From positions 1-39,728 of the forward strand of contig JBDTZG010000049.1 in NCBI GenBank assembly GCA_040005235.1: 39,728 nt of DNA. Reading direction: 5' to 3'. How positions within the stretch are numbered: the stretch's first letter is position 1; the number at the start of each line of letters is the position of its first letter. The position numbers were made by a program, and so were the translations under genes. The notes beneath the pieces were generated by a model that saw nothing but the letters and a program-made list of their open reading frames with translations, searched no databases and was not told the DNA's origin. Positions 1 through 3,378 of this stretch are shown here, piece by piece. This DNA comes from Acidobacteriota bacterium (GTDB lineage Bacteria > Acidobacteriota > Thermoanaerobaculia > Multivoradales > UBA5704).

Positions 1-1579
1 CGATCTCGCGGGTGATGGCGAGAACCTGCTCGAAGTACTCGATCGCGCGCCGAGTTTCGCCGAGGTCGGCGTAGGCGATTCCGAGGCTTCCGAGGTCCTG
101 TCCTTCGGCGCGTCGGTCCCCAATCTCGCGAGAGATCGAGAGTGCGGCATCGTGGTACTCGATCGCGCGCCGAGTTTCGCCGAGGTCGGCGTAGGCGAGT
201 CCGAGGTTTCCGAGGTGGTTCCCTTCCCTCGCCCGATTCTTCGTTCGCTGCGCCCCCTCCCGCCCCGCTTCGAGCCAGGCGATCTGCTGCCGAGGGGGCA
301 GGCGGAGTTCGAGCACGTACACCCCCGCATTCGGGTACTCGCTTGCGAGTCGCGCGGCTTCTTCCCTTTCCTGAAGCTTTTCGGCCGCCCACGTCTGTCC
401 GGCAGCGATCTGATGCCGCTCGCGATCGAACAGTGCGAGGCCCTCGAGGATGTGCTCGTTGCCCTGTTTGTAAAGCTCTTTCGCTTCCCCGAGCACGCCG
501 CAATAGTGCTCCGCATGCCGCAGCTCAACCTGCGCCTTCTCCTCCTCCGCCCGCTGCGAGGCCGCAAACGCCCGCGCGAGGTCGTGGAGCTTGTACCTGC
601 CGTCCTTCCCTTCGAGCAAACTCCCGCGCACGAAGGCGCCGAGCATTTCGTCCGTCTCTTCTTCGCCGAGCCCCCACACGGCCGCGGCGGCCGGGGCGTC
701 GAAGTCTCCGGCGAAAACGGCGAGGTGGTGGAAGCGCTGTTGAAAAGCATCAGGAAGGAGGGAAAGCCCAACCCCGAGCACCCTCTCGCCGATCGCGGCT
801 TTTTCTTTTTCCTTACCCAGACGCTTTTCCAACTCCTCAGGGGAGAGATCCGGCCGCTCCACGAGCGAACCGGCCGCAATGCGCAGCGCAAAGGGCAGAT
901 ACCCGCACAGCCCCGCGATGGACTTTGCCCGATCGCCGATCCTGCCGGCGATCCCGAGCAGGAGCGTGCAGGCATCCTTTTCGGGCAGCAGCTCCAAATC
1001 GCAAACGGTCAGCCCGGGGAGGGTGAACCTCTGCCGCGAGGTGACGAGCAGCGCGCACCCTGTGGGAGGCACGAGGGGGGCTACCTGATCGAGCCCGGAG
1101 GCGTTGTCCATCAAGAGGAGCGCTCGGCGGCCGGCCAGAACGTCTCGATAGACAGCCACAAGTTGGGAGCCTTCGGGCAGGCGCCTCTCCGGGTCAAACG
1201 AGCGCACCACCTGGGCCATGGCGTCGGCGGGCGAAAGCGGGCCTTCTTCGCTCACTCCCCGGAGATCGAGGAAGATCTGCGCATCGGGGTAGTCCGCCGC
1301 CATCTCGTGCGCGAGCACCAGGGCGAGCGCCGTCTTGCCCACGCCGCCCTGCCCCTGGAGGCCGCAGATCGTGGCGCCGCCTTTTCTCACCGAGGCGCGA
1401 AGCGCTTCGAGGTCCTCGGTGCGGCCGACGAAGTCGGCGGGCGGGGGTGGAAGTTGATGGAGGGGAGATCGAGAAGCCGATGCCGCGGCGGCTTCGATAT
1501 AGGTTCCGGCGAGAACGATGTTCCTTCCCGCCTGTGCGTTCGAGATCTCCCCCGTTACGCCGGGTGCGCCGGGGGTCAG
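1..1579 (-). CDS. NB-ARC (STAND) ATPase with C-terminal TPR repeats, bacterial NLR-like; 3' end runs off the window; no canonical start, probably reached by -1 frameshift from the 1576..1875 ORF
   Basis: Not in the ORF track; translated by hand on the minus strand. Motifs: LHQLPPPPADFVGR, Walker A GQGGVGKT, Walker B ALLLMDNA, sensor-1 LLVTSR, LCGYLPFALR (GxP), then 40-aa TPR units (GNLGLAYADLGETRRAIEYH / GSLGIAYADLGETRRAIEYF). The + strand ORF 152..1816 is its in-register antisense shadow. Confidence 0.9.
   Translation of the reverse strand, partial: MTPGAPGVTGEISNAQAGRNIVLAGTYIEAAAASASRSPLHQLPPPPADFVGRTEDLEALRASVRKGGATICGLQGQGGVGKTALALVLAHEMAADYPDAQIFLDLRGVSEEGPLSPADAMAQVVRSFDPERRLPEGSQLVAVYRDVLAGRRALLLMDNASGLDQVAPLVPPTGCALLVTSRQRFTLPGLTVCDLELLPEKDACTLLLGIAGRIGDRAKSIAGLCGYLPFALRIAAGSLVERPDLSPEELEKRLGKEKEKAAIGERVLGVGLSLLPDAFQQRFHHLAVFAGDFDAPAAAAVWGLGEEETDEMLGAFVRGSLLEGKDGRYKLHDLARAFAASQRAEEEKAQVELRHAEHYCGVLGEAKELYKQGNEHILEGLALFDRERHQIAAGQTWAAEKLQEREEAARLASEYPNAGVYVLELRLPPRQQIAWLEAGREGAQRTKNRAREGNHLGNLGLAYADLGETRRAIEYHDAALSISREIGDRRAEGQDLGSLGIAYADLGETRRAIEYFEQVLAITREI
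35..198. repeat. Direct repeat with 120-nt period encoding tandem TPR units
   Basis: gtactcgatcgcgcgccgagtttcgccgaggtcggcgtaggcga occurs at 35-78 and 155-198. Confidence 0.9.
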
Positions 1580-1603
1580 ACTTTTGGGTCGGGATGGTTC
1601 TCC
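1549..1603 (-). promoter_or_regulatory. Putative programmed -1 ribosomal frameshift signal
   Basis: Minus strand: GGAG (1603-1600), 11 nt, C_CCA_AAA (1588-1582) in the zero frame, 6-nt spacer GTCTGA, then hairpin CCCCCG-GCGC-ACCCG-GCGT-AA-CGGGGG (1575-1549). The -1 frame is the NB-ARC frame. Confidence 0.7.
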
Positions 1604-1875
1604 ACGCGAACATCGCCGCCTGCATCGAGATCGCGCGCGGTGACTTTGCCCCCGGTGCGGCCGGCGACGCCGATCGAGCCTTCGGCCCGAATTCTTTCGG
1701 CGGTCGTTTCTCCGGCCGGGTGCCGATCGCTCTCGCTGCTCCCTTTGAAGGAAAGGCCGGTGCCGCCCGGGCCGTCGATTTTCAGCTCGCCCTTCTTGCG
1801 GAATACGGCCAGGTAGGCGAGAGCGACGAGCGCAAGAATTCCTAAGGCGATCAATCCGGCAGTCTGAGGGTCCAT
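1576..1875 (-). CDS. 99-aa protein with one N-terminal transmembrane helix and a Gly-rich, beta-prone C-terminal segment
   Basis: ATG at 1875, divergent from the pilT-like gene. MDPQTAGLIALGILALVALAYLAVFRKK is a hydrophobic helix followed by basic residues; ends ...RDLDAGGDVRVENHPDPKV*. It is the C-terminal part of track ORF 1576..2661, whose remainder is a pilT shadow. Confidence 0.75.
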   Translation of the reverse strand: MDPQTAGLIALGILALVALAYLAVFRKKGELKIDGPGGTGLSFKGSSESDRHPAGETTAERIRAEGSIGVAGRTGGKVTARDLDAGGDVRVENHPDPKV

Positions 1876-1974
1876 GGATGTATTTTCGCAGAAAATGGGC
1901 TTCCTTGCGCGCACGAGCCCGGCGTCCGTCCGTGTACAATGAGCCGCTTTTAAAAAAACAGCGACGGAACTCGT

Positions 1975-3378
1975 ATGGAACTCGACAAGCTGCTGCGCAT
2001 AATGACCGATCGGAAGGCCTCCGATCTTCATTTGAAGCCGACCCGTCCGCCGCTGCTGCGGATCGCCGGCCGGCTGATGGCGCTCGACATGCAGCCGCTT
2101 CGGCCCGACGAGATCAACGAGATGGTGCTCTCGATCTTGAACCCGACGCAGAAGGCGAAGCTCGACTCGACCATGTCGGTCGACCTCGGTTACGGCGTTC
2201 ACGGGCTCGCGCGGTTCCGCGGCAATATCTACATGCAGCGTGGCACCTACGCCGCGGCGTTCCGGCGCGTGCCGTTCGACATCCGCAACATCCAGGATCT
2301 GGAGCTGCCGAAGGTTCTGCTCGATTTCACCGAGATGCCGATGGGGCTGGTGCTGGTCACCGGGCCGACCGGTTCGGGCAAATCGACCACGCTCGCCGCG
2401 ATGATCAAGCACATCACGGGGCGGCGGCCGGCCCACGTGATCACGATCGAAGATCCGATGGAATTCCTGTTCACCGACGACGTCGCGACCATCTCGCAGC
2501 GCGAGGTGGGCACCGACACGGTCAGCTTCCGGGAAGCGCTGCGCAACGCCATGCGGCAGGACCCCGACGTGATCATGGTCGGCGAGATGCGCGATCCCGA
2601 GACGGTCTCGACCGTCATCACCGCCGCCGAGACCGGCCACCTGGTGTTCTCGACCCTGCACACCAACAGCGCCACCCAGACCGTCGATCGCATCCTCGAC
2701 ACCTTCCCGGCCGACCAGCAGGGACAGGTGCGGGTGCAGCTCGCCCAGGTGCTCAAAGGGGTCGTCTCGATGAAGCTGGTCGAGCGCCAGGACGGCGCGG
2801 GGCTGGTGGCGGCGCTCGAAATCATGCGGTCGTCGCCGAAGATCTCCAAGATGATCGAGAAAGGCGAGACCAGCGAGCTGCTCGAAGAGGTCGAGTCGTC
2901 CGTCGGTTATTACCGCATGCAGTCGATGAACCAGTCGCTGCTCGCCCTGCTAGTCCACGGCACGATCACCTACCCCGAAGCGATGCGCGAGTCGTCCGAC
3001 CCCGAAGACCTGCAACTGAAAATGCGCAAGATGTTCCCCAACATCGAAGTGAGGGAAGGTGAGATGAGCCCGACCACGTCCGATTTCGCCGAGATCTTGG
3101 AGCTGCAACAGTTCCGCAAGCTGTATGAAGAGCAGGAAGAAAAGACCAAGATGAAGCTGGCCGAAAAGGACGACGAGATCGGGGATCTCCACTCCGCCAT
3201 GCGCCAGCGCGACGACGTGATCGAAGACGGTCGCCAGCGTTACGCTGAGTCGCTCAAGGAACAGGAACGGTTGAAGGGCGATTATGGCCGGCTGCGCCAG
3301 GAAGCGCAGGAGAAGATCGACAAGCTGATGGAGCGGATCAAAGAGCTGAACCAGAAGCTGGTCGGCGGGGCACGGTAA
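1975..3378 (+). CDS. pilT: PilT/PilU-family type IV pilus ATPase with C-terminal coiled-coil extension
   Basis: ASDLHL, RFRGNIYMQRG, Walker A GPTGSGKSTT, TIEDPME, RQDPDVIMVGEMRD, AAETGHLVFSTLHT. Confidence 0.9.
   Translation: MELDKLLRIMTDRKASDLHLKPTRPPLLRIAGRLMALDMQPLRPDEINEMVLSILNPTQKAKLDSTMSVDLGYGVHGLARFRGNIYMQRGTYAAAFRRVPFDIRNIQDLELPKVLLDFTEMPMGLVLVTGPTGSGKSTTLAAMIKHITGRRPAHVITIEDPMEFLFTDDVATISQREVGTDTVSFREALRNAMRQDPDVIMVGEMRDPETVSTVITAAETGHLVFSTLHTNSATQTVDRILDTFPADQQGQVRVQLAQVLKGVVSMKLVERQDGAGLVAALEIMRSSPKISKMIEKGETSELLEEVESSVGYYRMQSMNQSLLALLVHGTITYPEAMRESSDPEDLQLKMRKMFPNIEVREGEMSPTTSDFAEILELQQFRKLYEEQEEKTKMKLAEKDDEIGDLHSAMRQRDDVIEDGRQRYAESLKEQERLKGDYGRLRQEAQEKIDKLMERIKELNQKLVGGAR

Follow-up and report, generated by a model that had tools for sequence, protein, structure and literature searches.

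The window analysed here, a 39,728-nt stretch of the genome of an Acidobacteriota bacterium (6.2 Mb in 140 contigs), begins at base 1 of contig C9, and close to that end two overlapping open reading frames (ORFs) lie on the minus strand. The upstream one encodes a protein of 99 amino acids (aa) that begins MDPQ and reads MDPQTAGLIALGILALVALAYLAVFRKK...VENHPDPKV before its stop, the final residues being HPDPKV. The downstream frame, -1 relative to the small ORF, encodes an NLR-like protein, with an NB-ARC-type nucleotide-binding oligomerization domain (NOD) followed by tetratricopeptide repeats (TPRs). Where the two frames meet there is a heptamer of the slippery X_XXY_YYZ type, in phase with the small ORF and followed by a predicted stem-loop (Table 1). 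We consider it likely, from the comparison of related loci set out below, that expression of the NLR-like protein depends on programmed -1 frameshifting at the end of the small ORF. An earlier reading of this DNA from its letters alone, the first-pass annotation, had described the arrangement as a 99-aa ORF, GGAG, 11 nt, C_CCA_AAA, 6 nt and a hairpin, with the NLR in the -1 frame, and we could confirm that description to the base.

Table 1. Features of the small ORF, the slip site and the NLR frame, in window coordinates
Feature	Position	Strand	Detail
Small ORF, 0 frame, 99 aa	1576..1875	-	ATG 1875 to TGA 1578-1576
Predicted helix, residues 3-28 (membrane anchor or insertion helix)	1792..1869	-	AlphaFold2 (AF2) model
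Shine-Dalgarno (SD)-like GGAG, 11 nt 5' of heptamer	1600..1603	-	In the window copy, not family-wide
Slippery heptamer C_CCA_AAA (X_XXY_YYZ)	1582..1588	-	Phase C-CCA-AAA with small ORF
Spacer GTCTGA, including the 0-frame TGA	1576..1581	-	6 nt between heptamer and stem core
0-frame stop TGA in spacer	1576..1578	-	Overlaps NLR-frame CTG 1577-1579
3' stem-loop (predicted)	1545..1581	-	Core CCCCCG (1575-1570) pairs with CGGGGG (1554-1549)
-1 frame ORF: linker, STAND NTPase (NB-ARC/AfsR-like NOD), TPR	2..1588	-	529 aa to contig end
Conserved AQAGRNIVLAG (AGRD-type) motif, -1 frame	1505..1537	-	5' of any canonical start; from alignment
Conserved HQLPPPPADFVGR motif, NOD entrance	1421..1459	-	5' of first canonical start
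First canonical start (GTG) in NLR frame	1388..1390	-	66 codons past heptamer, after LPPPPADFVGR
P-loop GQGGVGKT	1331..1354	-	From translation; NB-ARC, NACHT and AAA_16 matches span the region
First TPR repeats	5..217	-	TPR_12 at 4e-12; array ends at contig end

The -1 frame reads PKSLTPGAPGVTGEISNAQAGR and encodes PKSLTPGAPGVTGEISNAQAGRNIVLAG...HQLPPPPADFVGR...GQGGVGKT before it runs into the TPRs, and it stays open down to base 2 of the window, which is the contig end; the TPR array is incomplete because the window starts at the first base of its contig. The window NLR scores below the Pfam cutoff for NB-ARC (21.2 bits vs 23.5), and its TPR families score above theirs. In a full-length paralog of 666 aa, residues 30-347 match the NOD of Streptomyces AfsR (E = 7.8e-41) and TPRs come next (TPR_12, 2.4e-28). 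By these matches, the body downstream of the slip site is a STAND NTPase with C-terminal TPRs. Its frame holds no ATG, GTG or TTG between TTG 1939 and GTG 1390, the latter lying past LPPPPADFVGR, just as the first-pass annotation had stated. The start-like codons in this interval are two CTGs only, one of them at the junction itself (1579-1577).

The same cassette recurs within the window's own genome. The small ORF occurs there four times, always ahead of an NB-ARC-TPR gene: on C9 (the window), on C18 and, in tandem, twice on C5; the C18 copy shares 77% nucleotide identity with the window over 1.9 kb, and the C5 copies share 58-59% protein identity. All four have CCCAAAAG, a 5-6-nt spacer, a CCCCCG/CGGGGG stem and the NLR in -1. 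The 0-frame stop shifts among these paralogs, being a TGA in the spacer on C9 and C18 and, on C5, a TAG within the hairpin loop. When the composite element was written as a regular expression and run over the 6.2-Mb genome, it gave exactly four matches, all at the paralogous small-ORF/NLR junctions.

Loci in other genomes were collected in two ways. Relatives, family, class and phylum were searched with the small protein or its profile, with no nucleotide information used, and metagenome contigs were searched with the single protein P0008, which gave three loci. The protein searches yielded 13 further loci with the ORF end on the contig, and thus 17 together with the four copies of the window's own genome. 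CCCAAAA stands in the phase C-CCA-AAA in 17 of these 17 protein-ascertained loci, at protein identities down to ~30%. The second approach was a scan of one genome per species with a DNA pattern consisting of heptamer and stem, which returned at least 116 stretches, with 80 loci among the matches listed. Among those listed matches, 12 loci show the small-ORF/-1-ORF arrangement, five of them duplicates of known loci. The scan added at least five Chloroflexota records, at least one from Planctomycetota and further Acidobacteriota with the same arrangement. Other pattern matches among those listed were mostly an A-rich spacer plus stem, terminator-like in appearance; L054 and L077 were inspected and rejected, and the rest were judged from frame statistics only. 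As a separate observation, six Desulfovibrio loci (L043, L044, L056, L058, L071 and L116) carry a near-identical CCCAAAAGGCGCGCCCCCGGCCTC(N)GGGCCGGGGG element in a different frame context, which is probably a conserved terminator or repeat.

After removal of the five duplicates, the non-redundant set comprises at least 23 loci from Acidobacteriota, Chloroflexota and Planctomycetota, with carriers in the Thermoanaerobaculia, Chloroflexia, Anaerolineae and Tepidisphaeraceae. The heptamer is in phase in 23 of 23, and in every locus the 0-frame stop comes 1-6 codons after the Lys (PKA-stop, PKV-stop, PKAEPPA-stop and similar). A GC stem is predicted 5-6 nt 3' of the heptamer in all 23, with loops of 3-15 nt, and the -1 ORF is 650-923 aa long where the contig permits. 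The first-pass annotation had proposed to look for recurrent small ORFs ending in PK-x-stop with CCCAAAR and a hairpin, and they do recur, with the heptamer in all 17 protein-ascertained loci and the stem throughout the larger set. L035 has the heptamer on a contig that ends 28 codons further on; it belongs to the 17 but is left out of the 23. Excluded before the counts were L018 (contig end, 31 residues) and the duplicates L019, L021-L024, L030, L034 and L154-L164, among which L161 matched at E = 7.8e-4 over 27 residues. L016, L017, L032 and L033, whose similarity lies in the N-terminal helix only, were also excluded, being in-frame transmembrane (TM)-TPR proteins. New loci were few, coming from 2 of 401 genomes in the window's own phylum, 1 of 401 in the phylum of genome G501 and 3 of 301 in the window's own class; in this wider genome sampling, few candidates were scored per genome.

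Over the set of 23, a canonical start first occurs in the -1 frame at +3, 3, 3, 8, 9, 13, 16, 17, 18, 24, 24, 24, 27, 30, 31, 31, 32, 35, 47, 66, 66, 70 and 86 codons past the heptamer. Read from this alignment of loci, the NLR frame has no conserved start codon. Homologs that bring a start of their own and lack the slippery site would speak against recoding, as the first-pass annotation noted; no start is conserved here, and the heptamer is present in every locus. The upstream open -1 stretch is without a start codon in 22 of 23 loci, and it is closed within 30 codons in 13. Four loci, among them the window, reach their first start only after the conserved HQLPxPPxDF(V/T)GR motif, and L026 has it at the P-loop. 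The region ahead of these starts also looks like protein-coding sequence. An AGRD-type motif, xQxAGRDIxxxA in the alignment, is encoded between the hairpin and the first canonical starts. Over the pre-start region of seven related loci, differences at codon positions 1/2/3 number 252/202/349, with 161 synonymous changes in the -1 frame vs 91 and 100 in the others. By these substitution counts, the -1 frame is coding ahead of its canonical starts.

It is tempting to read such a locus as two separate proteins, the NLR being initiated by translational coupling or re-initiation near the overlap and the nucleotides being conserved through the N-terminal peptide. There is precedent in Bell/NLR gene pairs, of which 42% overlap, one of them by 4 bp (Dyrka 2020, bioRxiv 10.1101/2020.01.06.895854), and which that paper treats as polycistronic two-protein systems. 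The junction codon would also suit coupled initiation in three loci, being TTG in L010 and L085 (TTGA) and ATG in L064 (ATGA). A weak profile similarity between the tail of the small protein, the putative effector, and the NLR N-terminus points the same way (hhalign: 21 columns, P = 6.9e-4, probability 27%); pairwise motif scores for the two segments fell mostly within those of shuffles, and a predicted complex of them scored 0.23, below the mark of 0.32. Against separate initiation, the +3 codon in the other 20 loci is CTG, CTA, CGA, CAA, GGA, TGG, GCA etc., none of them a canonical start, and an NTG at the junction is forced wherever the 0-frame stop is TGA. Fourteen of the 23 loci have no canonical start before +24; no SD precedes the candidate start positions, and the stem would cover them. 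The constant phase of the heptamer, and the RNA-level selection described next, count against this alternative as well, and we regard it as quite improbable. On the same comparison, the junction CTG of the window, which the first-pass annotation had singled out and which is indeed present, is a by-product of the overlapping TGA and not a conserved start.

Conservation of the peptide alone does not account for the nucleotides at the slip site. Given x-Pro-Lys, the probability of NNC-CCA-AAA under each locus's own codon usage is 0.002-0.07 per locus; CCA and AAA are minority codons, and the loci are 57-72% GC. For the four codons of the stem arms (xCC-CCC and xCG-GGG, read in the -1 frame), the median codon-usage probability is 0.0075. 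The outer arm residues vary (T/A/P/S and S/P/T/A) solely via the base whose change leaves pairing intact. L085 retains the 3' arm in another codon phase, and in L020 a different hairpin stands at the same position. Synonymous constraint, together with an arm kept in another codon phase, argues for selection at the level of the RNA and not only of the peptide, contrary to what conservation through an N-terminal peptide would predict. Along with the 17 protein-ascertained loci and the wider set of 23, this constraint lends support to the proposal, made in the first-pass annotation, that the NLR is reached through a programmed -1 frameshift.

The small protein belongs to a family of its own. It has 43 close homologs of 87-136 aa, and a profile search with a threshold of E <= 1e-3 found 530 cluster representatives. 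Within the top 150 of these, 134 are no longer than 150 aa, and 112 of those 134 end in PK plus 1-9 residues. The protein gave no Pfam match above cutoff, no PADLOC match and no PDB profile match, and an Atlas search returned unnamed clusters of ~100 aa only. AF2, run with 35 homologs, predicts one confident helix, with a predicted local distance difference test score (pLDDT) of 82-91 over residues 1-20 and <55 elsewhere. All aligned sequences have Met1, and at least 90% have Asp2; a basic RKK follows the helix, and the tail is Gly/Asp-rich, beta-prone and ends in DPKV. Some short members (P0102, P0119, P0120, P0136, P0189, P0078, P0100 and P0165) have KK(A/V/R/E)-stop or KK(V)GPPA-stop ends. 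Such KK tails in place of PK, seen in 8-9 short members, may mark an A_AAA_AAR variant of the slippery site.

Relatives in which the module is fused in frame give an idea of what the frameshift product would be. An earlier search for longer fused forms found none, which is weak evidence, and an exhaustive profile search identified longer in-frame proteins as 16 of the best 150 representatives. P0070, P0166 and a ~290-aa class carry the helix, the tail and an AGRD/AGGNITIQQ motif in one chain, and P0117 (866 aa) has the helix-tail module in frame with an HATPase_c_3 domain. The window's own genome encodes a CHAT-NB-ARC-TPR paralog, L004 (G000:C122, ORF 320-3280 on the plus strand, 986 aa; NB-ARC 31.8 bits), that shares 64% nucleotide identity with the window NLR over 1.46 kb. 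It has a CHAT protease domain in frame directly 5' of HQLPAPPADFVGR, followed by the same NOD-TPR body as in the window. In an Anaerolineales genome (L083), the cassette leads instead into a NACHT-FGE-sulfatase protein. From the in-frame relatives and the position of CHAT in L004, the helix-tail module would occupy the N-terminal effector position of NLR-like proteins. As far as the sequences go, in most members this position is fillable only via the -1 shift. The first-pass annotation had listed in-frame homologs as a result that would tell against recoding; they do exist, and we read them as support for a functional fusion and not as a refutation of frameshifting. Two proteins from same-genus genomes, L032 (G006) and L033 (G003), show yet another layout, in which the helix and a KGP-like segment are fused directly to a TPR array (544-558 aa) without beta tail, NTPase or slip site.

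Several observations weigh against frameshifting, or against parts of the case for it. A search pattern that itself contains the heptamer and the stem brought in seven of the 23 loci, and these seven are therefore uninformative on the conservation of either. Only seven of the 23 loci, one being the window, have a GGAG 7-11 nt ahead of the heptamer, which makes it a trait of some copies and not of the family; the dnaX/IS3 architecture claimed in the first-pass annotation thus stands for the heptamer and stem and does not extend to a general upstream SD. The window hairpin, whose core is extended by CGC/GCG pairing on the inside and GTCT/AGAT pairing on the outside, has a minimum free energy of -18.5 kcal/mol, and against dinucleotide shuffles its z is -1.30, with 18 of 200 folding as well. 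Taken alone, it is unexceptional, and its significance stems from the comparison across loci. Measured against synonymous recodings, stability has a mean z of -1.29 (controls 0.08; window -0.4), only modestly above that expected from the encoded peptide and codon usage. Since none of the six core pairs varies in the 18 alignable sequences, covariation is not significant, its score being attained in 53 of 500 shuffles. In the three loci where a canonical start (TTG, ATG, TTG) overlaps the TGA, coupled initiation could supplement or replace slippage. Among the short members of the best 150 representatives, 22 of 134 lack the PK plus 1-9 ending. P0103 (297 aa) reads ...RPKSLNPGG... in frame (ASRPRPKSLNPGG...GMPGVGKT), which corresponds to the predicted trans-frame junction; this protein may represent either a genuine in-frame fusion or a record with many indels, and its last ~60 residues look out of frame. 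Finally, among the public sequencing runs checked for the locus, no RNA run was found to hold it.

The heptamer and stem could also have some other role, as a recombination junction for module swaps or in mRNA stability or pausing, with low-level synthesis of the NLR from non-canonical starts. Different bodies do follow this module and junction, namely two NB-ARC-TPR types and the NACHT-FGE-sulfatase protein. A contig from another study (run X3) is of interest in this respect: it agrees with the window on either side, at the NLR entrance and in the intergenic region towards pilT, and has 560 other letters in place of the 459 at 1462-1922, which may represent a different N-terminal module at the same locus. 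Such a role leaves unexplained why a start-less ORF always follows in -1, and why an in-phase X_XXY_YYZ heptamer is paired with a stem at the spacing of programmed ribosomal frameshifting (PRF) sites. The ~35 conserved nt are short for homologous exchange, and a role of this kind is compatible with frameshifting, not exclusive of it. As a replacement for frameshifting, we judge it very improbable.

A simpler concern is that the frame change comes from an assembly or sequencing indel, or from a decaying pseudogene. The draft contig does end inside the TPR array, and one locus in the collection has a broken small ORF: in L031/L034 (G436:C40), the N-terminal half is out of frame, with a TGA inside the match, and the cassette and NLR are intact, so that this copy may be decaying or may contain an assembly error. 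For the window, independently assembled contigs from two public runs span positions 1300-2000 with 0 differences and 0 gaps, and do not show the indel that the first-pass annotation advised checking for. Both matching runs belong to one study, which is maybe the source of the window DNA; a low-depth relative from another study also crosses the slip site gap-free. Independent assemblies show this arrangement of frames at 23 loci, with NLR ORFs intact over 650-923 aa, and the chance that an artefact explains it seems to us negligible.

If programmed frameshifting operates here as we propose, a single mRNA would initiate at the small-ORF ATG (1875). Most ribosomes would read C-CCA-AAA-GUC-UGA and release the 99-aa protein, a hydrophobic helix with Asp2 and a beta-prone tail. 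Some would pause against the GC-rich stem-loop 6 nt on, with tRNA-Pro on CCA and tRNA-Lys(UUU) on AAA, and slip one base back (CCA to CCC, AAA to AAA). These ribosomes would then continue as ...DPK-SLTPGAPGVTGEISNAQAGRNIVLAG...HQLPPPPADFVGR into the NB-ARC-type NOD and the TPRs, leaving ...ENHPDPK-SLTPGAPGVTGEISNAQAGR as the predicted junction peptide. The genome encodes tRNA-Lys with UUU and with CUU anticodons, and tRNA-Pro with UGG, GGG and CGG; the presence of both Lys tRNAs may be why AAA, and not the AAG of E. coli, serves as the slippery Lys codon. With slippage as the sole route, the NLR-like sensor would be made only as a fusion to the membrane module.

Such a fusion would be a membrane-tethered or membrane-targeting all-in-one NLR with the N-terminal module as its executioner. 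The free 99-aa product might then form a pool of the same executioner, perhaps recruited via repeated beta motifs when the sensor oligomerizes, and the slip rate would set the effector:sensor ratio. By analogy with Bell/HeLo-type executioners, we infer that the helix is the membrane-damaging part, and that sensor oligomerization would cluster the tethered copies, with free copies joining through the beta motifs. Slippage would depend on decoding by tRNA-Lys(UUU) and tRNA-Pro and on pausing, and sensor dose could therefore answer translational stress during infection. Taken to its full extent, this becomes a one-gene, two-component module, in which a free executioner and a sensor-tethered seed build an amyloid-like membrane lesion, the slip rate fixes the seed:subunit ratio, the dose responds to stress, and some Bell/NLR pairs are recoded in the same way. 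We put this forward as speculation that is rather unlikely to hold as a whole.

Around the locus lie genes for a PilT-like ATPase, a nucleotidyltransferase, amidases and an M12B peptidase, with no defence-island context. The divergent neighbor at 1975-3378 on the plus strand encodes a PilT/T2SSE-type ATPase with a charged, coiled-coil-like C-terminal extension of ~130 aa. A sigma-70 promoter scan at the locus found nothing, and the slip cassette had no match in Rfam. In L013, L014, L025-L028 and L035-L037, a TATAAT box lies ~25-30 nt 5' of the small ORFs, and AAAGGAG stands ~8 nt ahead of the ATG. In the window's group, TTTCTGCGAAAAT ends 7 nt before the small-ORF ATG and there is no SD, from which the small-ORF mRNA of this group may be leaderless or short-leadered.

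Annotation at present breaks these sensors in two, giving a stand-alone hypothetical protein of 100 aa and an NLR whose N-terminus is wrongly placed. If the frameshift reading is right, a conserved cellular family that spans several phyla would join the short list of bacterial -1 PRF cases, and, going by literature searches, it would be the first on that list from NLR/STAND immune-like receptors. It would offer a testable way of setting effector:sensor stoichiometry, and it would link the all-in-one and two-gene NLR architectures, a standing question in amyloid/prion-like immune signaling. The ~45-nt cassette is also a compact candidate frameshift module for GC-rich bacteria. Full-text literature searches found nothing relevant on frameshifting in bacterial NLR/STAND or defence genes, and a term search of frameshift surveys found no mention of NLR/STAND families.

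The closest parallels to the proposed signal are well known. The E. coli dnaX -1 site combines an A_AAA_AAG heptamer with an upstream SD and a 3' stem-loop. Our family resembles dnaX (tau/gamma) in its X_XXA_AAR heptamer, in its 3' stem-loop and in the prediction of two products with a common N-terminus, a likeness that extends to an upstream SD-like element in the window copy and some others. The dnaX type, in which the longer subunit needs recoding, is described by Antonov (2013). The heptamer here is C_CCA_AAA and not A_AAA_AAG, and the gene family and biology are unrelated. In the IS3-family OrfA/OrfAB and the phage tail chaperones G/GT, slippage sets the ratio of products of mobile-element or phage genes. 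As predicted for our loci, they make a short 0-frame product, which ends soon after the slip site, and a long, start-less trans-frame fusion; the gene behind the slip site here is a chromosomal STAND/NLR-like gene. The slip site of copA is CCCAAAG, nearly the same heptamer as in the window family. In copA the frameshift truncates the product, whereas here it would extend it, and the A-site codon here is AAA. According to Atkins 2016 (PMC5009743), C_CCA_AAG is highly shift-prone in E. coli and frameshifting in copA yields a 70-aa product.

On the side of biology, the nearest systems are the Bell/BASS-NLR amyloid-signaling pairs of Dyrka (2020). In both, a small protein is encoded directly ahead of an NB-ARC-TPR gene that it overlaps and with which it is collinear; it has a hydrophobic helix at its N-terminus, with an acidic residue at position 2-3 (here D2), and a G/N/Q/V/I-rich, beta-prone tail containing pseudo-repeats. 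The published pairs also repeat a motif of ~25 aa from the effector C-terminus at the start of the NLR, a relation for which our family shows the weak profile similarity given above. In contrast to the Bell proteins, the small protein has no five-helix bundle of ~120-140 aa, being 99 aa long with one confident helix, and its NLR, which lacks a conserved start, follows a slippery site in the -1 frame; that paper nowhere uses the word "frameshift". We do not file the locus as a BASS pair because it has neither the Bell domain nor an NLR with its own start, though by analogy the module may work like one. The Bab/Agp antiphage amyloid signaling system (Ibarlosa 2024, bioRxiv 10.1101/2024.11.07.622273) consists of adjacent genes with a shared motif and a membrane-targeting executioner that brings about cell death on activation. 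It is encoded as two separate proteins with no recoding described in the abstract, where the window would make a recoded fusion, and the likeness is one of description. The all-in-one L004 has the same NOD-TPR body, HQLPxPPADFVGR entrance motif and N-terminal effector domain; its effector is fused in frame, whereas here a -1 shift would be needed and a free effector copy would be made as well. In all, the signal is of a known kind, that of dnaX, IS3 and copA, in a new setting, an NLR/STAND gene.

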